Shown piece after piece: positions 35,417 through 48,605 of a stretch of DNA of 64,000 bases (within the stretch, counting starts at the first letter, position 1; each line of letters begins with the position of its first letter). Under the pieces are notes generated by a model. That model made no database searches and had not been told where the DNA came from. It saw only the letters and a list, made by a program, of their open reading frames with translations. The position numbers and the translations under genes were made by a program. Source of the stretch: Natronospirales bacterium (lineage in GTDB: Bacteria; Pseudomonadota; Gammaproteobacteria; Natronospirales; REEB76); assembly GCA_021816765.1 (NCBI GenBank), contig JAKAXB010000001.1, positions 19,665 through 83,664 of the forward strand, given 5' to 3'.

Positions 35417-36322
35417 TCAGGCCCGTTCTGCGGGCCGCTGCGGGCTTTGTCGCGGCAGCAGTGCGAGAAACGCCTGTACTGCGGGAGGCAAATGCCGGCG
35501 CCGCAACTGCACACGATGCAGCGGGCGGCTGATCCCGAGTCCCACCACGCGGAGAACGCGCAACTGCCCGCTGCGCAGTTCCGACTCGACGACGAGGCGC
35601 GAAACAAACGCTACGCCGCCGCCGGCAGCCGCTACCTGCTTGATGGCCTCGCTGCTGCCGAGACAAACAACGCTTTTGAATTCCAGCCGTTTTTGTCTGA
35701 GCATCCCCTCGACGAAACTGCGGGTACCGGAGCCAGGCTCGCGTATCAGCAGGGTCTCGCGGCACAGGGTCTGTGGGTCCACCCGTGGCGTGCGCGTGAG
35801 CGGATGCGCAGCGCCTGCCACCGGGATGATCTCGTCATGCATGAATACTTCGGCGTTGACTTCCGGCTCGTTGAGCGGTCCCTCGGTGAAACCGAGCACG
35901 AGGCGCCGTGCCACCAGGTCGCGCTCGATGGTTTCGGTATTGGCGATTTCCACCGTGAGTTCCACCGCCGGGAAACGGCGCCGGAAGCCGGCGATGACCG
36001 GCGGCAGCAGATAGTTGCCGATGGTGCTGCTCGCACCGATCTTGAGCTCTCCGCCGCCGAGTTGTTCCATGTCGCGGATGGCGGTTTCTGCCTCGTGTTC
36101 CAGCGTAAAGATGCGTTGTGCATAGTCGTGCAGCAACTGGCCGGTCTCCGTAAGGCGCACGCCACGCGGCAGACGGTCAAAGAGCACGCTGCCGAGCCGG
36201 GCCTCCAGCTCACGCAACTGCCGGGTGGCCGCAGGCTGGCTGATATGCAGGCGCACCGCGCCGGCGCTCACGCCGCCGCTTTCCGCCACCGCATGGAAGA
36301 TCGCCAAATGCCATAGATTCAT
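35417..36322 (-). CDS. LysR family regulator (CysL/YeiE-like)
   Basis: LHISQPA HTH, GASSTIGNYLLP, REPGSGTR, SSEAIKQ. Confidence 0.92.
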   Translation of the reverse strand: MNLWHLAIFHAVAESGGVSAGAVRLHISQPAATRQLRELEARLGSVLFDRLPRGVRLTETGQLLHDYAQRIFTLEHEAETAIRDMEQLGGGELKIGASSTIGNYLLPPVIAGFRRRFPAVELTVEIANTETIERDLVARRLVLGFTEGPLNEPEVNAEVFMHDEIIPVAGAAHPLTRTPRVDPQTLCRETLLIREPGSGTRSFVEGMLRQKRLEFKSVVCLGSSEAIKQVAAAGGGVAFVSRLVVESELRSGQLRVLRVVGLGISRPLHRVQLRRRHLPPAVQAFLALLPRQSPQRPAERA

Positions 36323-36474
36323 ATCTAAAATATATACCATAAATAGATATTATGTATTTTTATTATGGCAAACACGGGCGTAGGCTTAGCGCCCTGCCGG
36401 TTCCGCAGCTGCGGTCCGGCCGCGGTTTTGCCGCCCCCCGTTCCACCGGGCGGCCAGTTTCGGGAGTGTGAGAC

Positions 36475-37032
36475 ATGAGAATTTCCACCACGTTCAAGAC
36501 CGCCGCGCTGGGGGCGCTGGTGCTGCTCTGCGGCACCGTTGCGGCTCAGGCGGCGGGTTTCTGGCAATATCCCGCCATCAAAGGTTATGGCCCGGTGCAC
36601 GTGTGGCCCGGGGCCATCGACAGGCCCAACCCTGCGGATACCTACAAGGCGCTGTTTGATTTGACTCAGAAGGGCAAGAGCTTCGACAAGCTCAATATGG
36701 GGCTCGATCACATAGCGCGTGCGGTCAATACCTTTGCCGCCGCAGGGGTGCCGCTCGATCATCTCAAGTTCGTGATCATTATTCACGGGCCGGCCACTCC
36801 CATCGCGCTCAACGAGAAGGCTTTCGAGGCCAGGTTCCACCACAAAAATCCGAATCTTGCAGTGATCGTTGCGCTGCGCAAGGCAGGCGTCGAGGTTCTG
36901 GTCTGCGGCAACGCTCTCGGTGACATGCATTTCAACCCCTCCGAGGTCAATCCTGAAATCAAGGTGGCGCTCTCGGCGCTCTCCACCCTCGTGATTCAGC
37001 AGAACGAGGGCTACGCGCTGATGCGCATGTAA
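36475..37032 (+). CDS. Periplasmic DsrE family protein
   Basis: Signal peptide; ARAVN...IIHGPA...GVEVLVCGNA...SALSTL. Confidence 0.8.
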   Translation: MRISTTFKTAALGALVLLCGTVAAQAAGFWQYPAIKGYGPVHVWPGAIDRPNPADTYKALFDLTQKGKSFDKLNMGLDHIARAVNTFAAAGVPLDHLKFVIIIHGPATPIALNEKAFEARFHHKNPNLAVIVALRKAGVEVLVCGNALGDMHFNPSEVNPEIKVALSALSTLVIQQNEGYALMRM

Positions 37033-37117
37033 GGCTTGGGACACGATTCCCGTCGCGGCGCAGGCCGCGGCGGGAGTCTTTACTGACAATAATGATGCAG
37101 AGCAATTTCCACTGAGG

Positions 37118-38134
37118 ATGAGCGACATGAATACAGGCAAGCTGCAGCGGCTGACGCTGTCACTCTTGGGGACCGTGGTTTTGGGCGCCGCTCTCGGTGC
37201 GGCCCATGCAGCGGACACCGGCTGGCACGGCCGGGTCGAGCCACCGCATTATCGCGGTGAGATCTTTCCGCCCTGGCAAAAGGGCGCGAACAATCCGGCT
37301 ACCGACAAGGGTCTCGAGCTTACCGTGCCTGAGATCAACGACCTGCCGGATTTCCACGGTAGCCCACAGGATGCCCGGCTCGTGATCTTTGTGGCCGGCA
37401 ATTACTATTTCGCCATGGCTCCGCTGGTGCACGCCTTCGAGGCCGAACATCCGCAGTTGCGCGGCCGGATTTACTACGAAACCCTGCCTCCGGGTATTCT
37501 GGTGGAGCAGATGAAGCACGGCGGCACCCTCACCGTCGGCAACATGACTTGGACGGTGAAGCCGGACGTGTACGCCGCCGGCAAGCTGAAAGTGACCGCG
37601 CTCATCCAGCACGGCATGTTGAGCGGCTCGCAGGTGAACTACGCCACCAATGACCTCGCCATCATGATCCCCAAGGGTAATCCGGCGCACATCACCGGTC
37701 TCAGGGATCTCGGACGACCGGATGTGCGTGTGGTGATGCCGAATCCCGCTTGGGAAGGTGTGGCGCGCCAGATCAAGATGTCGCTGGTGAAAGCCGGCGG
37801 GGCGGCGCTGGAAAAAGAAGTCTATGAGACCAAGGTGGCCGACGGCCGCACGATCCTCACCCACATCCATCACCGGCAGACGCCACTGTTCCTGATGCAG
37901 GGTCTGGCCGCAGCCGGGGTCACCTGGAAGTCGGAAGCGATTTTCCAGGAGCAGGTGGGCCATCCGATCAGCTACGTGCCGATTCCGGTCAATGAGAACA
38001 CCACCGCGGTGTATTCCGCCGCCGTGGTCAAGGGGGCCGCGCATCCGCAGGCGGCACATCTGTGGCTTGAGTTCCTGAAATCGCCCGTGGCACTGAAGAT
38101 TTTCGAGCACTACGGTTTCAAGGCCTATAAATAA
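37118..38134 (+). CDS. Periplasmic oxyanion-binding protein (ModA-like), no permease adjacent
   Basis: Signal peptide, DFHG, FVAGNYYF, YYETLPPG, KGNP, IHHRQTP. Confidence 0.75.
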   Translation: MSDMNTGKLQRLTLSLLGTVVLGAALGAAHAADTGWHGRVEPPHYRGEIFPPWQKGANNPATDKGLELTVPEINDLPDFHGSPQDARLVIFVAGNYYFAMAPLVHAFEAEHPQLRGRIYYETLPPGILVEQMKHGGTLTVGNMTWTVKPDVYAAGKLKVTALIQHGMLSGSQVNYATNDLAIMIPKGNPAHITGLRDLGRPDVRVVMPNPAWEGVARQIKMSLVKAGGAALEKEVYETKVADGRTILTHIHHRQTPLFLMQGLAAAGVTWKSEAIFQEQVGHPISYVPIPVNENTTAVYSAAVVKGAAHPQAAHLWLEFLKSPVALKIFEHYGFKAYK

Positions 38135-38184
38135 ACCGCGAGCCGGCCTGGAACAGGCCGGCTTGTTTTTGGGAGGGGAACGCT

Positions 38185-39258
38185 ATGGCAACTGTGGCGA
38201 ATGACATACTCAAGCCCGGCGCCGAGCGCGATGCGGCCTGGCGGCTCGTGGGCTTCGTGCTGCTGGCGGTGCGCTTTGTGCAGGGATGGATCTTCTGGGG
38301 CGGTGGCAGCCGGCGGTTCATCTATGCCCCGCAGAAACTCGACCCGCATGCGGCGAGCTGGATGGCCAACAAGTTCCAGACCGCCATGCCGGGCGCGATT
38401 CTCGGCATGGACAAGCTGGTGGATTTCATGCTGCACCATTCCACGCTGCTCTATACCGGCGTGATTGTCTTCAGCGCCGTGGAACTCATCGCCGGTTTGT
38501 TCCTCATCTTCGGCTTCCTCACGCGCATTTCGGCGCTGGCAACCATCGGGCTCAGCTTCGTGCTCATGCTGCTGTTCGGCTGGCAGGGGGCCACCTGCAT
38601 TGACGAGTGGACCATGGCCTCGGCCAATTTCGCCATGGGCGTGGTGCTGCTGGTCGCCGGTGCGGGGGCCGTATCGGTGGATGCCTGGCTCATGCGCCGC
38701 CGGCCGGCGCTTGCCGGGCGCGGCTGGTTCCGCTGGCTTGGAAGCGGCACCTGGAGTCCGGCACAGGCACGTCGCTGGAGCATTGCCGGCGCTATCGTGA
38801 CGGTGCTCTTCGTGGTGCTTACCTATAACTACTATCGCGGCTCGGTGCTGACGCCGTTCCACGGTGGCCCGGTGAGTCCGGCCAAGCACCACATCAGTCT
38901 GTCGCAGGGCAGCCTGCAGACCGATGGCGCAGTGCGTTTTACCGCCTACCTGGATGCGGGCACGCCGGCCGAGCCCGCCAACGTCGTCGCAGCCGACCTG
39001 ATCGGGTCTGATGGCAAGGCGGCGGAGGAGTGGAGCGGGGCGAGCCTCGCGGCGCTGCCCAAGAGTGCGTTTGCCAATGATTACGCCTACAACAAATTCG
39101 GCCCCGGCTATGCCGGTATCACCGCCAAGATCGGAGCGCGCGCCACAGTCAGCTTGCCGCCGGCCAAGCCCGGCCTCGCGCTTGCGGCCGGCGAGTACAC
39201 GCTGGTGCTGCACAGCGTGAACGGGCACCGCTTTACCCTGGCCTTGACGCCGAAGTAG
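38185..39258 (+). CDS. doxDA: Fused DoxD-DoxA thiosulfate:quinone oxidoreductase
   Basis: RFVQGWIFWGGGSRR, FGWQGATCIDEW, followed by a soluble DoxA-like domain. Confidence 0.85.
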   Translation: MATVANDILKPGAERDAAWRLVGFVLLAVRFVQGWIFWGGGSRRFIYAPQKLDPHAASWMANKFQTAMPGAILGMDKLVDFMLHHSTLLYTGVIVFSAVELIAGLFLIFGFLTRISALATIGLSFVLMLLFGWQGATCIDEWTMASANFAMGVVLLVAGAGAVSVDAWLMRRRPALAGRGWFRWLGSGTWSPAQARRWSIAGAIVTVLFVVLTYNYYRGSVLTPFHGGPVSPAKHHISLSQGSLQTDGAVRFTAYLDAGTPAEPANVVAADLIGSDGKAAEEWSGASLAALPKSAFANDYAYNKFGPGYAGITAKIGARATVSLPPAKPGLALAAGEYTLVLHSVNGHRFTLALTPK

Positions 39259-39612
39259 CAGCCGCTGCGCGCATGCAGGACAGGAGCCACGTCAGGTAAT
39301 TGCAGAACTTGTTTGACGCGGCTCCTTGTCCGGCCGAAGTGAGGCCACAGGTTCGCGGGATCACTGGCCGCCGGCTCCCGGGTTGGCTGCGAGCAGGATC
39401 AATCCTCCCGCCAGGAGGATCAATTTTCCGGATAACAATGACGGGTGCAGCGCACCGGCCGCTCGCCGTTGATGTTGTGCTTTAACATACCGACACGCGG
39501 TAATATTGGTGCCCGCCTGCCGTGCAGACGCCGTCATTGTTCGGCGCCGGCTCGCGGGAGGCGGTGGCTGCCAAGCTATCCGCATGGATTCACCGGGAGG
39601 AGATGACTGAGC

Positions 39613-41025
39613 ATGGCCGACACGCTCCTGCTGGCACGTTCCCAGTTTGCCCTCACGGCACTGTTCCATATCCTCTGGCCGGTGCTGACCATCGGGCTGT
39701 CGCTGTTTCTGGTGGTGAACGAGACGCTGTGGATTCGCAGCCGCGATCCCGATTACTATCGGCACGCACGCTTCTGGAGCAAGCTCTTCATCCTCAATTT
39801 TGGCGTGGGCGTGGCTTCCGGCGTACCCCTGGAGTTCGAGTTCGGCACCAACTGGGCGCCGTTCTCCGCCGCCATGGGAGATTTCTTCGGTAACATCCTC
39901 GGTTTCGAAGGCGCCATGGCGTTCATGCTGGAGGCGGGCTTCCTCGGCATCATGCTGTTCGGTTGGCGACGCGTGGCGCCGAAAATTCACCTGTTCGCCA
40001 CCTGTATGGTGGCGCTCGGTGCCTCCCTGTCGGCATTCTGGATCATGGTCGCCAACAGCTGGATGCAGACGCCGGCGGGCGGTGTCATGCAGCACGGCCG
40101 TTTCGTGGTGACGAGTTACACGCAGGCCATGTTCAATCCGGCGGCGCTCTGGGGAGTGGGCCACATGTGGTTCGCCTGCCTGGAAACCAGCCTCTTGGTG
40201 ATCGGTGCGCTCTCGGCTTGGTACATCCATAAGAACCGCCACCCGGAATTTTTTCTCAAATCCCTGAAGATCGCCATTGCCGCAGCAGTGCTGGTGGCGC
40301 CGCTGCAGATATTCCTGGGCGACGGCAGCGGCCGCGTGGTGTTCGAGCAGCAGCCGGCCAAGGGCGCGGCCGTCGAGGGCCACTGGCGCACCAACCCACC
40401 AGGCACCGGGGCTCCCTGGGCGGTAGTGGCTTGGCCGGACAAAGCCCGGCAACGCAACGACTGGGCGATCACCATCCCGGGCGTGCTCAGTCTGCTCGCC
40501 ACCCACCGTCTTACCGGCCAGGTGACGGGGCTCAAGGCGTTCCCGCCCGCAGACCAGCCACCAGCGCTGCCGCTGCTGTTCTACGCTTTCCGCCTGATGG
40601 TGGCCATCGGTTTCTACGTGCTCGCGCTCATGCTGTGGAGTGTGTGGCTGTGGTATCGCGGCGAACTCACCGCAGAACGGGTCGGCCGCCACCGGCGCTG
40701 GCTCCTCGCCTGGATCGGCGCGCTGCCGCTCGGGTATCTTGCGGTGGAATCGGGCTGGATCGTGCGCGAAGTGGGCCGCCAGCCGTGGATCGTGAACGGG
40801 CTGATGCGCACCGCCGCGGGTGTATCGGCGCTGCCGCCCGGCACGGTACTCGCCTCGCTCATCGGCTACGCGCTGCTGTACACGTTACTGCTGACTGCTT
40901 TTCTGGTGTTTGCCCGGCGCACCTTGCGCAAGGGACCGGATGTCACCGCCGAGCCGCCGCCTTTGAAACCCGCGGCCCCGCTGCAGGTGAATGCCCCCGT
41001 GCCCCACGCCCTCGAGGACGACTGA
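39613..41025 (+). CDS. cydA: Cytochrome bd quinol oxidase subunit I (short Q-loop)
   Basis: LARSQFA..ALFH, FEFGTNW, ANSWMQTP, FRLMV, GWIVREVGRQPW. Confidence 0.96.
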   Translation: MADTLLLARSQFALTALFHILWPVLTIGLSLFLVVNETLWIRSRDPDYYRHARFWSKLFILNFGVGVASGVPLEFEFGTNWAPFSAAMGDFFGNILGFEGAMAFMLEAGFLGIMLFGWRRVAPKIHLFATCMVALGASLSAFWIMVANSWMQTPAGGVMQHGRFVVTSYTQAMFNPAALWGVGHMWFACLETSLLVIGALSAWYIHKNRHPEFFLKSLKIAIAAAVLVAPLQIFLGDGSGRVVFEQQPAKGAAVEGHWRTNPPGTGAPWAVVAWPDKARQRNDWAITIPGVLSLLATHRLTGQVTGLKAFPPADQPPALPLLFYAFRLMVAIGFYVLALMLWSVWLWYRGELTAERVGRHRRWLLAWIGALPLGYLAVESGWIVREVGRQPWIVNGLMRTAAGVSALPPGTVLASLIGYALLYTLLLTAFLVFARRTLRKGPDVTAEPPPLKPAAPLQVNAPVPHALEDD

Positions 41026-41026
41026 C

Positions 41027-42037
41027 ATGGAGCAGGTGATCGGGTTGCTCGCCGATATCTGGTTCGTGCTGCTGGGTGTGATTCTGGCCCTCTACGTAGT
41101 GCTGGACGGCTTCACACTCGGCGTGGGCATGCTCACGTTGTTTTCGCCCACCGAGGAACGGCGGGGTATTCTCATGGGCACCCTGGGCAGCGTGTGGGAC
41201 GCCAACGAAACCTGGCTGGTGCTGCTGGGCGGCGCACTGTTCGGTGCGTTCCCCGCCGCCTACGCGCTTCTGCTGCACGCACTCTATATCCCGGTCATCA
41301 TCATGCTGTTCGGCATGATTTTGCGGGCCGCGGCCTTCGAGTTCCGCGAACACGCCGAAGCCAAGCGTTTCTGGAATCTGGCCTTCGCGATGGCGAGTCT
41401 GGTGATCGCCCTGGCCCAGGGGGTGGCCCTCGGTACCGTGCTGCAGGGCATTCCGTCGGTGGACGGCGCGTATGTCGGCAGCGTGTTCGACTGGGCGCGG
41501 CCGTTCCCGCTGCTGGTGGCTTTGGGCGTGGTCTGTGGTTACGGGCTGCTCGGCGCGGTGTACCTCATCCTGCGCACCGAGGGCATCATCCAGACCCGGG
41601 CACGCTTCGCCGCGCGGCTGCTGGCCTGGCTTACCTTCGCCGTAGCAGTGGCAGTGACCGTGTGGACGCCGTTCATCTATCCGCAAGTGGCGACGAAATG
41701 GTTCAGCCTGCCCGGTTTCTTCCTGATCCTGCCGCTGCCGGTCGCAGGTTTCGCGGCGTTCCTGCTGTTGCTGCGTGCGCTTGCGCGCGGCCACGAGGCC
41801 GCACCTTTCGTGTGGACCGTGGTGATTTTCCTCGCCTCCTTCGGCGGGTTGGCGGTGAGTCTGCATCCTTATATAGTGCCGCCCTCGCTCACCCTCACCC
41901 AGGCTGCCGCCTCGCCGGCGACGCTCATCTTCATGCTCACCGGCATCGGCATGCTGCTGCCGGTGATGATGATCTACAACGGCTACCAGTACCTGGTGTT
42001 CCGCGGCAAAGTCACGGTGCCCGGCTATCATCATTGA
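41027..42037 (+). CDS. cydB: Cytochrome bd quinol oxidase subunit II
   Basis: YVVLDGFTLGVG, VWDANETWLV, RAAAFEFR, YLVFRGKV. Confidence 0.96.
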   Translation: MEQVIGLLADIWFVLLGVILALYVVLDGFTLGVGMLTLFSPTEERRGILMGTLGSVWDANETWLVLLGGALFGAFPAAYALLLHALYIPVIIMLFGMILRAAAFEFREHAEAKRFWNLAFAMASLVIALAQGVALGTVLQGIPSVDGAYVGSVFDWARPFPLLVALGVVCGYGLLGAVYLILRTEGIIQTRARFAARLLAWLTFAVAVAVTVWTPFIYPQVATKWFSLPGFFLILPLPVAGFAAFLLLLRALARGHEAAPFVWTVVIFLASFGGLAVSLHPYIVPPSLTLTQAAASPATLIFMLTGIGMLLPVMMIYNGYQYLVFRGKVTVPGYHH

Positions 42038-42223
42038 ACGGTGCCCCGGTAATAAACCCGGGGTGCGGTCCCTCTCACCGTTTGTTTGTGCGACGGTATC
42101 CGTCGCGATTCTTTGCGTGGTGCCCAACATCGTCTGTGGTCATGGCACCGGATGGCACGGCCACTGCCGCGTGATTCTCCGGGTAAGACCAAGCGTTATA
42201 GAAAAAAGTACTACTTTATAATA

Positions 42224-42279: not shown

Positions 42280-42510
42280 GTGGATACCTATATGACCGTC
42301 AAGGGGCAGATCGTGATTCCCTCGCGCATCCGGCGGAAACTCGGCATGAAGCAGGGAACCCGCATCCAGGTGGAGCTGGATGAGCCGGGCCAGCGGGTTA
42401 TTCTGATTCCGATCACGCGCGAATACATCCAGGGCCTGCGCGGGAAATACAAAGGCAAGGGACTGCTGAAAGCTCTCGCGGCCGAAAAGAAAAGAGAGCG
42501 GGAAATCTGA
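42280..42510 (+). CDS. AbrB/MazE-type antitoxin (VapB)
   Basis: TVKGQIVIPSRIRRKLGMKQG. Confidence 0.88.
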   Translation: MDTYMTVKGQIVIPSRIRRKLGMKQGTRIQVELDEPGQRVILIPITREYIQGLRGKYKGKGLLKALAAEKKREREI

Positions 42511-42920
42511 TGGCGCGCAAACCCAAGGCGATCGTGCTCGATTCCTGGGCCGTGCTCGCCTATCTGGAGGACGAAAAGTCAGGGCAGGACGTGGCGGAGC
42601 TTCTTTCCGAGGCCAGCGAACAAAACACTCCGGTTCTGATGTCGGTGGTCAATGCGGGCGAGGTCTGGTACATCCTGGCCCGGGAAGTGTCGGAAACGGA
42701 AGCCGATAAAGCTATCCATGAACTCAGACAGCTTGGGATTGAATTCGTGGCGGTTGAGTGGGAGTTGGTGCGCTTGGCCGGGAGCTTCAAGGCCAGATAT
42801 CGAATATCCTACGCGGATTGTTTTGCCGCAGCACTGACCCAGGCACACAAGGCGGAATTGATTACCGGCGACAAGGAATTCAAACAGGTGGAATCCGAAG
42901 TTCAGGTCCGGTGGGTGTAG
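42510..42920 (+). CDS. vapC: VapC PIN-domain toxin
   Basis: VLDSWA, NAGEVWY, SYADCFAAA, ITGDKEF. Confidence 0.9.
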   Translation: MARKPKAIVLDSWAVLAYLEDEKSGQDVAELLSEASEQNTPVLMSVVNAGEVWYILAREVSETEADKAIHELRQLGIEFVAVEWELVRLAGSFKARYRISYADCFAAALTQAHKAELITGDKEFKQVESEVQVRWV

Positions 42921-42960
42921 CGGTGGATCTGAATTTTGGTCGTTAGTGGAGAGCTCATAA

Positions 42961-44862
42961 ATGACAAAGTGGTATTTCAACAAAGTGCCAGCCGGGAGCA
43001 AGATTCGTGAGCCGGTCAACAGCGAGTTCTTTGCTACTGATGCCATAAGCAATCCTGGTGTAGCCTTGGTCAGGGAGGGTATCCAGAATTCACTGGATGC
43101 AGCCGACGATGGGAAAAACGTTCTAGTCCGTATTTATCTTTCCGGTAATGGGCGCGCGCTCGCACACGATAAGGTCGCCCCGTTCATAGATGGCATCTGG
43201 GAACATTTGTTGGCCAATGGAAATGGCCTTCGTGATGTGCCGCAGCAGGAAGAGAATTGCTCTTTTATCGTCTTTGAGGACTTTGGAACGACTGGGTTGA
43301 CAGGTGATCATAGCCAACCTTACCCGCCAAAGTATGGGGAGCGGAACCCATTCTTTTACTTTTTCAGAGCCGAAGGCAGGTCGGGCAAGGGCGAACATGA
43401 TCGTGGCCGGTGGGGGATTGGCAAACAGGTTTTTCCGCGTGCAAGCCGTATCAGCACCGTGTTTGGCCTTACGGTACGCGCAGACGATGGGCGACGCATG
43501 TTGATGGGACAGACGGTCTTGAAATCGCATTGGGTAAATGATGTTTTTTGCCAAGATGGATGGTTTGGCGATAAGAACAGTGAAATCGTTATGCCAACCG
43601 AGAGTAGGGAATTGCTTGATACATTTTGCAAGACATTTGATCTGCAAAGGGGACCAAAGGACCAAGGGTTATCACTTGTTGTGCCTTGGTACGACTCTGA
43701 AATTGATGAGAAATGGATCCTAAAAGCTGTTTTGCGGGACTATTTCTATCCAATTCTTATGGGGAAGCTCGATGTTATCGTGGAAACATCCTTAATTAAG
43801 ACCTCTTTGGATTCAAAGAACTTAAGAGCAGAGATAATGCGTTTTGAAGATATAGGAAAGGAGATGAGCCCGATTCTCGACTTGGCGCAATGGGCACAGG
43901 ATGTATCCGCTGATCAGATCGTAACATTATCGAGGCCGGCCGCAGATCGGACACTTCGGTGGGGCGCCGATTTATTTTCAAGTGATGCAACCAAGTCTTT
44001 GCAAGCTGCTTTCACAAAAGGCGAAAAGTTGGCGCTGCATATTCCAGTAACTGTTCGGCCGAAGAATGATCCATCAAGAGAATCATTCTTTCGGGTCTAT
44101 ATGGTTCGTGATGATGATAATGAAGAAGGGCATCCCGTGTTTATCCGCGAAGGAATCATAATCTCGGATGTACGCTCACCGAGAACACGCGGTGTTCGCT
44201 CATTGGTTGTTATAGAAGATGCACCGCTGGCCACTATGCTGGGTGATTCTGAAAACCCGGCCCATACACAATGGCAGAAAGATGGGTCAAATTTCAAAGG
44301 AAAATATATTTATGGTCCATCTTTCATAGAATTTGTAACACGGAGCGTTCATGAAACTATACGGCATCTCACAGAAAGCGATAAGGTGGAAGATCGCACA
44401 TTGCTTGTTGATATTTTCAGCCTTCCCGCGCTCCCCGAGGAAGATGCTATAAAGTCGAAAGATCAACATGAAGCGTCTGGACCTGGTTCTGGACCGCCAG
44501 AAGGGCCACCGATCTTGCCGCCACGCCCACGAAACATTCGTGTATCAAAGATTACTGGAGGGTTTTCAGTTACCCGTGGTGGGCCAGATTCACATCCCCC
44601 TGTATATCTAGATGTTGTCGTTGCCTATGACATAAGGCGAGGGAACGCATTCAGGAAATACAACAAAGCCGATTTTGATGTGGAACAACTTCCAATTATC
44701 ATTAAAGTATCAGGTGCCGATCTGGTTTCAAAAACGGGGAATCGGATCATGGTAGCTATCCGGGATCGCGATTTCAATCTTTCCGTTACGGGATTTGATG
44801 AGCGCCGAGATTTGCGGATTAAAGCGATAGCGCGCTCAGTGGGAGAATCGGATGGCGATTAG
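42961..44862 (+). CDS. GHKL (HATPase/MORC/sacsin-like) ATPase-domain protein
   Basis: N box LVREGIQNSLDA, G1 EDFGTTG, G2 GRWGIGK; ENPAHTQW; Pro-rich linker; beta-rich C-terminus. Confidence 0.75.
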   Translation: MTKWYFNKVPAGSKIREPVNSEFFATDAISNPGVALVREGIQNSLDAADDGKNVLVRIYLSGNGRALAHDKVAPFIDGIWEHLLANGNGLRDVPQQEENCSFIVFEDFGTTGLTGDHSQPYPPKYGERNPFFYFFRAEGRSGKGEHDRGRWGIGKQVFPRASRISTVFGLTVRADDGRRMLMGQTVLKSHWVNDVFCQDGWFGDKNSEIVMPTESRELLDTFCKTFDLQRGPKDQGLSLVVPWYDSEIDEKWILKAVLRDYFYPILMGKLDVIVETSLIKTSLDSKNLRAEIMRFEDIGKEMSPILDLAQWAQDVSADQIVTLSRPAADRTLRWGADLFSSDATKSLQAAFTKGEKLALHIPVTVRPKNDPSRESFFRVYMVRDDDNEEGHPVFIREGIIISDVRSPRTRGVRSLVVIEDAPLATMLGDSENPAHTQWQKDGSNFKGKYIYGPSFIEFVTRSVHETIRHLTESDKVEDRTLLVDIFSLPALPEEDAIKSKDQHEASGPGSGPPEGPPILPPRPRNIRVSKITGGFSVTRGGPDSHPPVYLDVVVAYDIRRGNAFRKYNKADFDVEQLPIIIKVSGADLVSKTGNRIMVAIRDRDFNLSVTGFDERRDLRIKAIARSVGESDGD

Positions 44863-45631
44863 TACATTAAACTATACGGGTCGTCTGAAACTAAAGCACC
44901 CTCACACGCGCATCTATCTTCGTGGAAGTGCGGGCAGTACCCTCGGTTTTGATGCAGTATTGAATTTTTCCAGCTACGATCTGCCGGATAATTCACGTGT
45001 GCATGTCGAGGCTTATCGACAGACAACGTGGATGCGATTTGATTTTGGTACTGTCGGGCGAATTGAATCACCATCAGATCGATTGCTTACGGCCTTTGAA
45101 TCTCAGGAAGGAATTCTGTTTCGTGTGAAAGTAACCTCAGGTGGTGATCGGCATGGCGTGCTTCTTGCGGAAGGGGATCGCATTCGAGCTTCTCTGCAAG
45201 AGGAGAATGAAACCAATAGCATTCCGTTATTACCAGTAGTACCTGATTCAGATTTGGGACAGCAAATATTCCGGGTCAGCTTTGAAGGTGATAGGGCAGC
45301 ACTTTGCATAAATCGACTGCTGAGTGACTGGCGCTCGCTCGCGCGTGATCCGCTATTCGTGTCACTGGTATATCCAGAAGCATTGCGTGCAGTGCTTGTG
45401 CGTATTCTGCGTATAGAAAAGTACTCGGATATCGAAGACACGGAAGATTGGAAATCGCAGTGGTTGCGATTTTCTACCCTTCTCCCAGGTGTTGGCGATG
45501 TTCCAAATCCGGAAGATGATGAAAGCTGCGATGATTGGATAGAATCTACGGTTGCGGCATTTGCAAGACGACATAAAACCGTGGATAGCTTCATTGCGTA
45601 TTGGAACGAGGAGGTTGGCGATGCAACTTAG
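44852..45631 (+). CDS. Hypothetical protein (island gene 2)
   Basis: 259-aa ORF overlapping the previous gene by 11 nt; low GC. Confidence 0.8.
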   Translation: MAISTLNYTGRLKLKHPHTRIYLRGSAGSTLGFDAVLNFSSYDLPDNSRVHVEAYRQTTWMRFDFGTVGRIESPSDRLLTAFESQEGILFRVKVTSGGDRHGVLLAEGDRIRASLQEENETNSIPLLPVVPDSDLGQQIFRVSFEGDRAALCINRLLSDWRSLARDPLFVSLVYPEALRAVLVRILRIEKYSDIEDTEDWKSQWLRFSTLLPGVGDVPNPEDDESCDDWIESTVAAFARRHKTVDSFIAYWNEEVGDAT

Positions 45632-46340
45632 GAGGCTGAATCAAAGTGGGCTCGGTGCATTCACGGACTTTCTTGATGTGGTAAGAACTGGCATCCGTCA
45701 AGACTACCCACAATATCTGCTGAATGATCATGCGGCTTCGGAACTTGTTGTACCTGATGTCGACATTGAAAGTAAGGTGTTCGGAACACGCTTTGAGGCG
45801 GCAAAATACTTAGCTGAAAGACTTTCTCATGCAGGAATAACGAATTTGGTCACAGATAAAGGTATATGGGCGTGGCTTACCCTGTTTTATTTTGATGAAC
45901 TTTGTCCCATTGGGAAAGATGGGAAAAGAAAACCGGGAGAGCTTGCTCGCTGGATTCCTGAGATATCAAATTTTCGCAGGTATTATAGGCACCTCTTGGC
46001 CGGACCTTACAGAATATATATGGCGCATGGGGATGCGCCCCAACGTGCCATGGCATTATTGTGCGGCCCTCTTCACAGACCTGGTGAGGTTGTTGAACAA
46101 CTGGCCGCACGACAGGAATTGGTTACGAATAGGGGTGTGATCGAATTGGCAACGATGCTCTATTATGAACAAGAGGAGCATCAGCTTAAGCGTGGCTCAT
46201 CAGGCAAGGGAGCCGGCAGCCCACGGCGACTCGCCGACGTATTCAATCAATTCGATGTAACCTGGGATTTGTACTCGATGACAACTCCGGAGCTTTTGCC
46301 AATGCTACCCAAGGAGTTCGAACGATTCCGGGCTGCTTAA
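45621..46340 (+). CDS. Hypothetical protein (island gene 3)
   Basis: GAGGAGG RBS, ATG at 45621, 11-nt overlap with gene 2; WAWLTLFYFD and RRYYRHLLAGP blocks. Confidence 0.8.
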   Translation: MQLRRLNQSGLGAFTDFLDVVRTGIRQDYPQYLLNDHAASELVVPDVDIESKVFGTRFEAAKYLAERLSHAGITNLVTDKGIWAWLTLFYFDELCPIGKDGKRKPGELARWIPEISNFRRYYRHLLAGPYRIYMAHGDAPQRAMALLCGPLHRPGEVVEQLAARQELVTNRGVIELATMLYYEQEEHQLKRGSSGKGAGSPRRLADVFNQFDVTWDLYSMTTPELLPMLPKEFERFRAA

Positions 46341-46348
46341 ATTGCAGA

Positions 46349-46783
46349 TTATTGAATGGAACGTCGTCGTTTCTTTGCTTCGTGGATAGTTTTGGTAATC
46401 CGCTGTGCAACAACCTGTGGTCTAGTTGTCTGGCATTCCCACACTACCAGAACACGCCAACCGAGTTTCTTGAGACTGCGCCTAACATTCAGGTCTCGCT
46501 CAATATTTTCAGCAAATTTCTCCTTCCAAAAACTAATACGGCTTTTTGGAAAATAGGCATATTTGCAATGCCGATGCCTATGCCAAAAACAGCCATTAAC
46601 CAGAATAACGGTTTTATATTTCGTCAGGACAATATCAGGTTTTCCAGGGAGCTTCTTACTGTGCAGGCGGAACCTGAAACCAAGCCGGTGCAATTCTGAT
46701 CGAATTAACCTTTCCGGTAGTGTATTCCGGTTTCTGATACCGGCCATCATCTCGCTTCTCCGGCTTTTGCTGACAATGTCCAT
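46349..46783 (-). CDS. vsr: Very short patch repair endonuclease
   Basis: RSEMMAGIR..NTLPE, LPGKPDIV, NGCFWHRH, GWRVLVVWEC. Confidence 0.96.
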   Translation of the reverse strand: MDIVSKSRRSEMMAGIRNRNTLPERLIRSELHRLGFRFRLHSKKLPGKPDIVLTKYKTVILVNGCFWHRHRHCKYAYFPKSRISFWKEKFAENIERDLNVRRSLKKLGWRVLVVWECQTTRPQVVAQRITKTIHEAKKRRRSIQ

Positions 46784-46785
46784 AT

Positions 46786-48384
46786 CTAAGCAAGCCCAGC
46801 CTTTTTTAGTATGCGAAAGACTATCTCTGCCAACTGTACGGCAAGTAGTGGAGGAACAGCATTTCCAACTTGGATGTACTGTGCGGTACGCCCCCCACAG
46901 AAATAATAATTATCAGGGAAAGTCTGAATCCTCGCTGCCTCACGCACAGTCAGGCTGCGACACTGAAAAGGGTCTGGATGAATGTAATAATGCCCATCCT
47001 TGGAAATATGGCTTGTAATAGTGGTCGCCGGGATATTGCCAAGTTGCACCCTGAACCGATCCGCAAAGTAACCTTTCCCCTCAAGAGCATTATCAACGCT
47101 GAAATGATCTGGAAGAAGATCAGCAGGGAAATCACGCATCATCGGAGATTTTCCGTGCGATTCAGCAAAGCAACTTGCATAAAGATATCTGAAGAGATCG
47201 CTTGTCATATGCGACCTACTACTATGATTGCATACTCCAGCAAGTCTGTGATCTAAAAACCAATCTGGGCGATAAGAAATCTTGGGCGTACATTCAATAA
47301 ATTCACCACCACGCTCTGCTCTTGGGGGGGTGATGTTGTTTATAACTTCGAGTAATTTTCCATAGATTTTACTACCGTCTTTATTCTTTGAGGCTTTAAA
47401 CCATCGGCGTTCTCTGGTCTTTTTCAAGATATGAATCCAATGATTATTGTCGTCTCTTTCTTGAGATAATCCGCTTCGTAATTTTGGAAGGCCTTGTAAC
47501 ACTCTATTCGCAGAAATGGGTGTAATACCTTTCAAGCTGCCAGGATTTATTCCCCCCAAGTCATTTCGCATACCAAGGAGTATCAGCCTATGTCGCGTTT
47601 GTGGAATCCCGTACTTCTCCATACGGACAACGAAATCTGATAGAGAATGTGTGTTACTTAATGGGGATGTTACGAATGAATAAATATTGTAACGAGCCGG
47701 CTTCATTTTTGAAATTGCTCTGGCTGAAGCCCGATGCGCTCGCGCCAAGGCTTGTGCTGGGTACTGGAGGTCGTCAAAGATACGGTCAAAGATCAGTTTG
47801 TCGTTCACAGTCGCTGATAACAAGCCTTTCACATTTTCCATTACAAATAAAGCGGGCGCGCAATCTGCAATAACCTGAAGGTACTCAATATACAAATACT
47901 GCCTGTGATCATCTTCTGGTTTATAATCAGCGTTGCCCTTGTTTCTGGATCGCCCAGCAACCGAATACGCTTGGCATGGTGGGCCCCCGATCAGCAAGAA
48001 TTCATCGGAGTCCTGTAAAGCGGAGTTGATAGCTTGTTTGATCTTATCTGGATCACTATTACCGAGTTCGGCGCATAGGGTCTTTTGCTTTGCGGATGCT
48101 GCTTCACGAGGAAATTTCAGGAACAGACTGTCAAGTCTTTTATTTTGCCGTTCTTTAAGGTTTTGTAATAACTCGTAATAGGTACCCGGGAAACGACTCC
48201 CTTGAAACTCTCGAAGAAATGTTCTGAGCAGTAGTGTTTGGTGCGCAGCGGCATCTTTTTCGATTGACAGTTTGATTTGAAATCGCTGTGAGTCGCTGGA
48301 ATCACGAAATGCAGAGAAACCTTCTCCGAGACCTCCGGGACCGGCAAAGAGATCAATGATTGGAATAATTCTGTTTTGTGGCAT
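46786..48384 (-). CDS. dcm: DNA (cytosine-5)-methyltransferase, long type
   Basis: DLFAGPGG, GGPPCQ, MENVKG, QTRHR, RSLTVREAARIQTFP, QVGNAVPP. Confidence 0.96.
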   Translation of the reverse strand: MPQNRIIPIIDLFAGPGGLGEGFSAFRDSSDSQRFQIKLSIEKDAAAHQTLLLRTFLREFQGSRFPGTYYELLQNLKERQNKRLDSLFLKFPREAASAKQKTLCAELGNSDPDKIKQAINSALQDSDEFLLIGGPPCQAYSVAGRSRNKGNADYKPEDDHRQYLYIEYLQVIADCAPALFVMENVKGLLSATVNDKLIFDRIFDDLQYPAQALARAHRASARAISKMKPARYNIYSFVTSPLSNTHSLSDFVVRMEKYGIPQTRHRLILLGMRNDLGGINPGSLKGITPISANRVLQGLPKLRSGLSQERDDNNHWIHILKKTRERRWFKASKNKDGSKIYGKLLEVINNITPPRAERGGEFIECTPKISYRPDWFLDHRLAGVCNHSSRSHMTSDLFRYLYASCFAESHGKSPMMRDFPADLLPDHFSVDNALEGKGYFADRFRVQLGNIPATTITSHISKDGHYYIHPDPFQCRSLTVREAARIQTFPDNYYFCGGRTAQYIQVGNAVPPLLAVQLAEIVFRILKKAGLA

Positions 48385-48429
48385 CGGATTGTAATTTTAA
48401 CCTATTCCTATCAATTATCAGCGGAACTG

Positions 48430-48463
48430 AAAAAGGAAACGCCGCCAAGCGGCGGCGTTTCCC
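48430..48463 (-). terminator. Terminator following the hppA 3' relic
   Basis: GGAAACGCCGCC-AAGC-GGCGGCGTTTCC preceded by an A-run (T-tail on the minus strand). Confidence 0.75.
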
Positions 48464-48484
48464 GTAAGCACGCGACGCTAACGC

Positions 48485-48605
48485 TTATTTCACCAACAAC
48501 GGGATGATCAACAGCGCCACGATATTGATGACCCTGATGAGCTGGTTGATGGCTTGACCGGCGTGTCCTGGCAGGGATCGCCCACGGTGTGCCGGTGACC
48601 GGCAA
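48485..48605 (-). pseudogene. Degenerate duplicate of the hppA 3' end
   Basis: Minus strand encodes [36 protein letters not shown] (two 1-bp gaps), versus hpp[39 protein letters not shown]. Confidence 0.9.

Follow-up and report, generated by a model that had tools for sequence, protein, structure and literature searches.

A conserved three-gene operon encoding a probable GHKL ATPase adjoins Dcm and Vsr genes in a Natronospirales bacterium and in other phyla

Cytosine methylases of the Dcm type belong to several described or predicted cassettes, with which we compare here a five-gene island of a Natronospirales bacterium. The island lies in a stretch of 64,000 nucleotides (GenBank assembly GCA_021816765.1, contig JAKAXB010000001.1, positions 19,665 to 83,664 of the forward strand), called the window below and numbered from its first letter. 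Three open reading frames (ORF1, ORF2 and ORF3, together the trio) face genes for the mismatch endonuclease Vsr and for a Dcm-type methylase. In the Mza system too, a Dcm-type methylase, often with Vsr, stands beside a GHKL-type ATPase in one cassette. However, ORF1 is not matched by the MzaB model, ORF2 and ORF3 have no Mza counterpart and, as the initial annotation of this DNA had stated, none of the window ORFs scanned encodes a Z1, DUF4420 or AIPR partner (PF10593, PF14390, PF10592). Classical Type II cassettes such as EcoRII-Dcm-Vsr likewise pair a motif-complete Dcm with a genuine Vsr, the two genes being 2 bp apart here; unlike them, the island has no recognisable Type II endonuclease, its other genes being the trio and a vapBC pair only.

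The prokaryotic MORC and paraMORC restriction-modification (R-M) systems, in the sections of Iyer, Abhiman & Aravind (2008, PMC2292703) drawn on here, combine a GHKL ATPase and its C-terminal extension with cytosine methylases and Vsr-family endonucleases in laterally mobile islands, as the present locus does. They differ in being built around superfamily 2 (SF2) helicases and nucleases of the restriction endonuclease (RE) fold, HNH or TIR type, none of which is seen here, and the HATPase_c_3 model does not detect ORF1. The trio fits the general picture given in those sections, minus its helicases and nucleases. Finally, the phage defence candidate (PDC) systems are 145 candidates proposed from their embedding in BREX, DISARM or Type I R-M loci, according to the portion of Payne et al. 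(2024, bioRxiv 10.1101/2024.01.29.577857) used here. One of them, PDC-M33, foreshadows the trio.

We report that the trio is a conserved operon that habitually adjoins a C5-cytosine methylase, often together with Vsr. Its features, and those next to it, are as follows (aa, amino acids).

42961-44862, plus strand: ORF1, 633 aa, probable GHKL (Bergerat-fold) ATPase, with ATPase domain, middle domain containing ENPxH, Pro-rich linker and beta-rich C-terminal domain
44852-45631, plus strand: ORF2, 259 aa, predicted Ig/FN3-like beta-sandwich (residues ~10-155) and C-terminal helical domain (160-257)
45621-46340 (ATG start), plus strand: ORF3, 239 aa, predicted mainly helical, no recognised fold
46349-46783, minus strand: vsr, 144 aa, very-short-patch-repair T:G mismatch endonuclease (PF03852 and TIGR00632)
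46786-48384, minus strand: dcm, 532 aa, C5-cytosine DNA methyltransferase with a long variable region (PF00145 and TIGR00675)
42280-42510, plus strand: vapB-like antitoxin, 76 aa, MazE/AbrB/SpoVT fold (PF04014)
42510-42920, plus strand: vapC-like PIN-domain toxin, 136 aa (PF01850)
48434-48463, minus strand: strong terminator-like hairpin (13-bp stem, T-run), just upstream of dcm
42894-48573, no strand: variable segment, exactly ORF1-ORF3 with vsr and dcm, from contig breaks and the comparison with a sister genome

The layout agrees with the initial annotation. By coordinates, ORF1/ORF2 and ORF2/ORF3 overlap by 11 nt each, ORF3 ends 8 bp from the convergent vsr, and 2 bp separate vsr from dcm. 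Shine-Dalgarno-like strings precede the ATG of ORF2 (GGGAG) and that of ORF3 (GAGGAGG); a longer version of ORF3 put forward by the ORF lister begins at a TTG at 45552 and has 262 aa. The block of about 5.4 kb is AT-rich, as had been noticed: in 500-nt bins its GC content is 0.42-0.53 across 43000-48499, against 0.60-0.68 at 36000-41999 and 0.59-0.67 from 48500 onward, the fall starting near 42000 (0.54-0.55). Both enzyme names hold at curated cut-offs. Vsr reaches 96.6 bits with PF03852 (7.7e-28; cut-off 27) and 137.6 bits with TIGR00632 (cut-off 97.85). Dcm matches PF00145 (1e-39) and TIGR00675 (8.8e-33, 114.3 bits; cut-off 100.65), and its 532-aa product contains motifs I (FAGPGGLG), IV (GPPCQ, with PCQ), VI (ENV), VIII (QTRHR) and X (GNAVP).

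A scan of one genome per species yielded 302 loci encoding an ORF1 relative, and the best 79 were analysed, with trio genes called by hidden Markov models (HMMs) built from clustered neighbours and run on six-frame translations. ORF2- and ORF3-family genes both directly follow the ATPase gene in 50 of the 79; the other 29 comprise 19 loci with neither gene, nine with ORF2 only and one that is cut. The 50 trio loci come from Acidobacteriota, Planctomycetota, Verrucomicrobiota, Chloroflexota, Nitrospirota, Pseudomonadota, Bacteroidota, Gemmatimonadota and others, and on the ORF1 tree the phyla are intermixed. The three genes form a conserved operon with translational coupling.

Most of the 19 loci lacking ORF2 and ORF3 are short contigs or belong to a planctomycete subgroup in which the ATPase gene stands amid housekeeping genes. 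The ATPase is alone at L045-L054, L058, L061, L065, L066, L072, L074 and L078, and accompanied by ORF2 only at L055-L057, L059, L060 and L063; the neighbourhood includes a xylose-isomerase-like TIM barrel, HisG, DUF1501 and DapF. Such conserved synteny points to vertical inheritance of the ORF1-family ATPase here and to its use outside islands.

The initial annotation had proposed checking whether the trio co-occurs with dcm and vsr, and it does: a Dcm gene lies within ~6 kb in 35 of the 50 trio loci, and 29 have a Vsr gene. Where Dcm is missing (15 loci), the contig breaks off no more than 3.1 kb from the trio in six cases. Full-length relatives of the window Dcm (identity of 38% or higher across 400 aa or more; range about 40-55%) occur at 17 loci, nine times downstream on the same strand, six times convergent as in the window and twice upstream. 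When downstream on the same strand, Dcm often begins 3-50 bp after ORF3. A different Dcm of 570-600 aa is found directly upstream of the trio in eight more loci, and a fourth Dcm layout in one further genome (G156). Even a distant trio on a Rhizobium plasmid, with an ATPase 23% identical to ORF1 and ORF2-like and ORF3-like proteins recognised by hhalign at 98.5% and 99.4% probability, has a Dcm 2.5 kb away. The trio habitually adjoins a C5-cytosine methylase, and this recurrent, variously arranged adjacency to at least three kinds of Dcm is hard to explain by chance co-location.

Within the genus of the window, the five genes behave as one unit. ORF1 relatives were found in none of 18 same-genus genomes (none of 15 when three flagged as unpublished are left out), and 12 genomes of the same order gave one weak match. 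In a sister genome (G042), nucleotide identity of ~90% extends from the left flank through vapBC, whose vapC homologue is 85% identical as a protein, and homology stops at window position 42918. After the same vapBC, at the same chromosomal site, this genome carries another low-GC cargo (L124, G042:C26, 3279-8995) before the contig ends: a 795-aa protein with no Pfam or PADLOC match, a Vsr, a 403-aa Dcm and a 540-aa protein with HATPase_c_3 and HEPN-like (Hypoth_Ymh) domains. Metagenome contigs break at 42894-42899 and 48544-48573 in four runs that contain window DNA and are possibly its source, so that they are not independent; in runs X3 and X8 one 5680-nt contig piece spans 42894-48573, with separate pieces on either side. 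Two weak hints come from an X3 contig joining 42918 to 49399, whose shorter side has 30 letters at a likeness threshold of 90%, and from a loose end at 42928 in X8. From the stop of homology in the sister genome, the contig breaks and the genus genomes in which no ORF1 relative was found we conclude that the variable unit is the five genes, gained or lost together in this genus, and that vapBC is the conserved left anchor of a hotspot.

On the right, the hairpin at 48434-48463 is probably the end of the neighbouring host transcript and the edge of the island, since GC climbs from 48500 and the metagenome contigs break at 48544-48573. The island shows no convincing flanking direct or inverted repeats and no excess of promoters or terminators over shuffled sequence, and none of the nine runs listed as matching window DNA is an RNA run.

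The vapBC pair, directly upstream of the trio, had been overlooked in the initial annotation. The vapB-like ORF matches PF04014 (4.3e-08, 33.4 bits; cut-off 24.7) and the vapC-like ORF, 40 bp upstream of ORF1, matches PF01850 (6.2e-19, 69.2 bits; cut-off 23.6); on the latter the NCBIfam VapC equivalog scores 14.8, under its cut-off of 80. The stop of vapB and the start of vapC overlap by 1 nt, an arrangement typical of VapBC antitoxin and PIN toxin genes. A MazE and PIN pair directly precedes the ATPase in 8 of the 50 trio loci, and pairs from other phyla are 41-60% identical to the window PIN protein (tblastn). We considered vapC as the nuclease effector of the system and rejected it, because the pair accompanies only these eight trios and the same vapBC precedes the other cargo in the sister genome. 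Elsewhere the slot directly upstream of the ATPase, occupied by vapBC in the window, holds small proteins of three clusters: c6 (L001, L002, L005, L012, L030, L034, L069), c13 (L004, L020, L028, L041, L062) and c16 (L003, L013, L029, L031, L032, L067). By eye these have a ribbon-helix-helix (RHH)-like N-terminus and a winged-helix-like C-terminus, with no Pfam match; this look of regulators led us to reject them as effectors.

Such an upstream slot, filled by vapBC or by regulator-like proteins, would be expected if the trio served a mobile element, by controlling the methylase, stabilising the island with vapBC or countering host or rival restriction, and insertion sequence (IS) elements or recombinases do flank several loci. 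Integrase or transfer genes do not travel consistently with the trio, though, and none of 31 pattern-matching stretches from 2.9 million viral contigs encodes an ORF1 relative. An ATPase with invariant motifs and two conserved partners also exceeds the usual regulatory machinery, and we consider service to an element very improbable.

At two further loci, transposase genes bracket or interrupt the trio. At L007 (6448-15190) the trio and a Vsr fragment lie between two inverted IS66-family transposase genes, in a composite-transposon-like arrangement, and at L077 (11896-14741) a Mutator-family transposase splits the ORF2 gene.

We propose that the five genes form a horizontally mobile, methylation-linked, R-M-like defence cassette beside vapBC, in which Dcm would supply the self mark, Vsr would compensate for deamination and the ORF1-ORF2-ORF3 complex, driven by ATP, would act on DNA without that mark; we put the probability of this reading at roughly 50%. 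The surroundings of other trio loci provide a defence context, with HsdM, an Eco57I-type methylase plus PLD-SNF2, AbiE, AIPR, Mrr, and transposases or recombinases among the neighbours. Dcm would methylate host DNA and Vsr would limit the C-to-T mutational cost of 5-methylcytosine (5mC). ORF1, as a dimeric GHKL ATPase, would form with ORF2 and ORF3 an ATP-driven DNA clamp targeting DNA that lacks the methyl mark. Specificity could come from the methylase acting as specificity subunit, as in Type III, BREX and DISARM systems, or from generic sensing of the methylation state; the trio itself probably reads no fixed sequence, since closely related trios carry different Dcm types. The damaging step could fall to the ENPxH region of ORF1, which is invariant and rich in D/E/H, to ORF3, or to a nickase that the complex recruits, for example Vsr. 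Of the five-gene R-M-like system claimed in the initial annotation, the conserved operon, the linkage to Dcm and Vsr and the joint gain or loss stand; restriction by the trio is something we infer.

Several observations weigh against this proposal. As the initial annotation had noted for nucleases, searches of ORF1-3 against Pfam, NCBIfam, PADLOC, PDB profiles and known folds brought up no nuclease, no helicase and no DNA-binding domain. No HATPase family of Pfam matches the 24 ORF1 members at E ≤ 10, or 16 more distant ones at E ≤ 1, and a PDB profile search with the ORF1 alignment returned nothing at E ≤ 1. A canonical restriction enzyme already stands beside Dcm in 8 of the 35 Dcm-linked loci (EcoRII-C in seven, MvaI/BcnI in one), so that a further restriction activity would be superfluous at these loci. 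Dcm is missing within ~6 kb from nine trio loci whose flanks are complete; some of these loci adjoin HsdM, an Eco57I-type methylase with PLD-SNF2, AbiE or Mrr, and others lie amid ordinary genes. Finally, the Dcm partner changes often on the ORF1 tree. This tree has 43 rows, omitting loci whose ORF1 ORF is shorter than 560 aa, two loci called in an antisense frame and six truncated Dcm-negative loci. The Dcm-type label requires 15 changes on it (minimum 4; shuffled mean 22.6; none of 200 shuffles as low), the EcoRII-linked label is scattered as in shuffles (seven changes for seven rows), and sister pairs such as L071/L076 and L014/L001 differ in their Dcm partner. Because Dcm type differs between sister trios, the trio is not tied to one methylase specificity; together with the canonical enzymes at 8 of the 35 loci, this disfavours a fixed-site restriction enzyme.

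Some of these facts would suit an autonomous defence or conflict module, independent of methylation, that merely shares hotspots with Dcm-Vsr and other R-M genes. Full-flank loci devoid of Dcm, complete EcoRII-Dcm-Vsr sets in seven loci and MvaI/BcnI in one, and the switching of Dcm type among sister trios all point that way, as does the planctomycete subgroup with its ATPase alone or with ORF2 only; PDC-type candidates, in the portion of Payne et al. used here (bioRxiv 10.1101/2024.01.29.577857), are likewise defined by embedding in other systems. Yet adjacency in 35 of 50 loci, often with same-strand gaps of 3-50 bp, is far above ordinary co-location in islands, and at least three Dcm families in four layouts point to repeated selection for the pairing. 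The PDC-M33 locus of genome G216 (below) and the distant Rhizobium trio also come with a Dcm, and the segment variable in this genus is the trio with dcm-vsr and nothing else. We therefore regard full independence from methylation as unlikely, while giving it some weight.

Association with any Dcm type, including a Dcm already supplied with a restriction partner, could also mean that the trio assists repair instead of attacking DNA: as a portable, MutL-like complex with an ATPase it would aid Vsr at T:G mismatches left by 5mC deamination and so lower the mutational cost of Dcm. The presence of Vsr in 29 of 50 loci and the lack of a recognised nuclease in the trio agree with this, and E. coli MutL, itself a GHKL ATPase, functionally interacts with Vsr, as cited in the sections of Iyer et al. 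used here (PMC2292703). On the other hand, the host genome encodes its own MutL, 7 of the 35 Dcm-linked trio loci have no nearby Vsr match, and a helper made of three proteins, ~1130 aa in all, would be costly to carry; we find such a role quite improbable.

A further, speculative possibility, to which we give little credence, is that ORF1-ORF2-ORF3 is a nuclease-free epigenetic reader, a prokaryotic counterpart of MORC-type silencing. Its ATP-driven GHKL clamp would load on DNA without 5mC and block replication or expression without cutting, relying on any Dcm of the host or the island, and ORF3 would be a previously unseen fold that senses the methylation state or docks the methylase. Such a reader would explain why no nuclease turns up, why Dcm partners swap freely and why the trio coexists with complete EcoRII-type systems.

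The ORF1 motif strings reported in the initial annotation (REGIQNSLDA, EDFGTTG, GRWGIGK) are present, as are the Pro-rich linker and the C-terminal tail, and in 24 homologues residues E39, N43, D46, D107, G112, G149, G152, G154 and K155 are invariant. The N-box consensus ExxxNxxDA is satisfied by R-E39-GIQ-N43-SL-D46-A47, where A47 is nearly invariant, and hhalign aligns it with the N-boxes of MutL, Hsp90 and MORC-like proteins. The invariant G2 box, G149-RW-G152-I-G154-K, aligns in the same way with those of Hsp90 and MORC-like proteins. The G1 box is non-canonical, E-D107-F-G-T-T-G112 reading DxGxxG rather than DxGxG; one hhalign run instead put the DNGIGM of Hsp90 against ANGNGL of ORF1 (residues 85-90). 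Against pooled MutL, Hsp90 and MORC-like references drawn from related genomes, hhalign gave E 4.8e-4 and a probability of 32% with N-box and G2-box in register, and no more than 25% for MutL, MORC-like or Hsp90 proteins taken singly. Neither Pfam nor NCBIfam matches ORF1. Language-model neighbours of residues 1-300 are HATPase_c_3, HATPase_c and SACS clusters (scores 0.87-0.89), which serve as a lead only. In our judgement ORF1 is very probably a divergent GHKL ATPase: the motifs named in the initial annotation are kept, while formal membership fails the curated models and was not confirmed by Pfam, PDB profile search or hhalign.

The middle region of ORF1 contains a strictly conserved block ending, in the 24 homologues, in an invariant E431-N-P-x-H435 (E431-N-P-A-H435 in the window). 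In paraMORC2 a conserved ExxxH motif lies late in the S5 domain, according to the section of Iyer, Abhiman & Aravind (2008, PMC2292703) that describes it; the ORF1 motif recalls this description. There are at least 2444 ORF1 homologues at E ≤ 0.001. Among the 120 listed, lengths are 623-670 aa, the name where given is 'hypothetical' and none has a precomputed Pfam domain. No longer, fused relatives were found, which is weak evidence, and a plasmid search gave only the distant Rhizobium match.

The two partner proteins match nothing in Pfam or NCBIfam, nor in PADLOC at E ≤ 10. ORF2 is predicted with a predicted local distance difference test score (pLDDT) of 91.6 as an Ig/FN3-like sandwich followed by a helical domain; a generic Ig/FN3 sandwich is its sole match in the fold search, in which the helical half was barely tested, and a PDB profile search returned no match at E ≤ 10. 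ORF3 is predicted with pLDDT 94.6 and a predicted template-modelling score (pTM) of 0.91, and its model has no fold match in PDB or BFVD. This lack of matches does not prove that the predicted folds are new. The best PDB profile match of ORF3, the small subunit of acetolactate synthase (E 0.0011, ~70 residues), was judged to be due to chance. With the ORF3 profile, matches amount to 1933 representative clusters (50% identity level) at E ≤ 1e-3, of which 809 reach E ≤ 1e-30, and nearly all of the 150 relatives listed are standalone proteins of ~240 aa. Three longer members of this list were scanned, none of them informative: P0271 (758 aa) has an extra sigma70_r4-type helix-turn-helix and ~400 further residues, P0232 (409 aa) a C-terminal zinc ribbon and P0125 (368 aa) an extra N-terminal 130 aa with no Pfam match.

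A complex prediction of ORF2 with ORF3 gave an interaction prediction score from aligned errors (ipSAE) of 0.45, against 0.00 for the best control; no fewer than 82% of contacts recur between runs, and the partners have a pLDDT of 84 or higher. Of 80 solved complexes 58 reach the ipSAE mark, and of 110 mismatched pairs 2 do; at values of 0.60 or below it is reached by only 7 of the 80 solved complexes and by both passing mismatches. The prediction weakly suggests that ORF2 and ORF3 touch each other.

The nearest catalogued relative of the trio is PDC-M33, represented in PADLOC-DB v2 by three 'phage defence candidate' models, PDLC04582 (A), PDLC04583 (B) and PDLC04584 (C). ORF1 matches PDC-M33A at 2.2e-21 (74 bits), with residues 96-281 only against profile positions 103-274 (172 of 627 positions). 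On 301 genomes of the phylum this model finds one strong member, in G216 (5.1e-97, positions 4-622), whose operon encodes a Dcm of 348 aa, M33A (624 aa), M33B (278 aa, 2.8e-37) and M33C (249 aa, 1.1e-12). The M33C family is DUF6339, PF19866 being found in 120 of 120 homologues listed. The likeness extends to the order and sizes of the three genes (633, 259 and 239 aa in the window against 624, 278 and 249 aa), to the Dcm gene, which directly precedes the operon in G216 and adjoins the trio in the window, and to the defence-island or embedded context.

In contrast, the PDLC04583 and PDLC04584 models, which both match G216, find nothing in the genome of the window at E ≤ 0.01. With hhalign, ORF2 against M33B reaches 0.6% and ORF3 against M33C 0.2%; ORF3 against a DUF6339 alignment reaches 2.9% (E 0.015), with the N-terminal stretch alone in register. 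Homology of ORF2 to M33B or of ORF3 to DUF6339 is not demonstrable by these sequence comparisons. Because M33B and M33C find no match and the M33A match is partial, PADLOC would not call the window system.

The newness claimed in the initial annotation survives in part: the trio lacks M33B and M33C matches, but the core of ORF1 matches PDC-M33A and G216 has the same Dcm-A-B-C layout. The trio is already foreshadowed by PDC-M33, a catalogued candidate without demonstrated function, and is not a categorically new system. As gene order, sizes and Dcm adjacency match PDC-M33, ORF1-like ATPases form a superfamily of modules on Dcm-based systems. No paper mentioning PDC-M33 or DUF6339 was found in the searchable literature; searches on defence combining GHKL, Vsr and methyltransferase gave nothing relevant, and those on Hsp90-like antiphage proteins the Tiamat preprint alone.

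Three further loci deserve mention. L134 (G095:C11, 5323-11653) represents another branch of the superfamily, encoding proteins of 441 and 421 aa, a 646-aa ATPase (PDC-M33A, 1.5e-25) and proteins of 304 and 283 aa; the Dcm HMM finds no Dcm in the 16 kb examined. At L039 (13382-18941) and L040 (6858-~12600), which are recorded under different phyla, one shared set of three genes comes after the trio. It encodes a 977-990-aa HEPN_Swt1 and Hsp70-like protein, a UvrD-like helicase (~393 aa) and a product of ~474-525 aa that matches no Pfam family, and may represent a further linked system. Two long ORFs overlap on opposite strands at 40943-42174, in the left flank of the window, which is high in GC; they have 395 aa (minus) and 326 aa (plus), and the 395-aa one has no Pfam match.

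Altogether, we consider the finding real and of moderate interest. It concerns a Dcm-linked family that is large, lacks annotation and has a function assigned by inference only. With at least 2444 ATPase homologues and 1933 ORF3 clusters, it extends over many phyla, its three proteins have no relative in Pfam, NCBIfam or PDB, and current defence finders would not call the trio system. The comparison joins PDC-M33 with its DUF6339 C component, a Mza-like hybrid and the trio into one superfamily of Dcm-linked modules. ORF3, with a confident predicted structure and no fold match, is a good structural target. A prediction of 2008 cast GHKL ATPases encoded next to cytosine methylases as restriction-like machines, and the helicase-free, nuclease-free kind has no characterised case in the literature searched. 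If the trio restricts DNA, it would hide either a new nuclease or a non-nucleolytic action on unmethylated DNA, and would be one effector module that pairs with interchangeable methylases.

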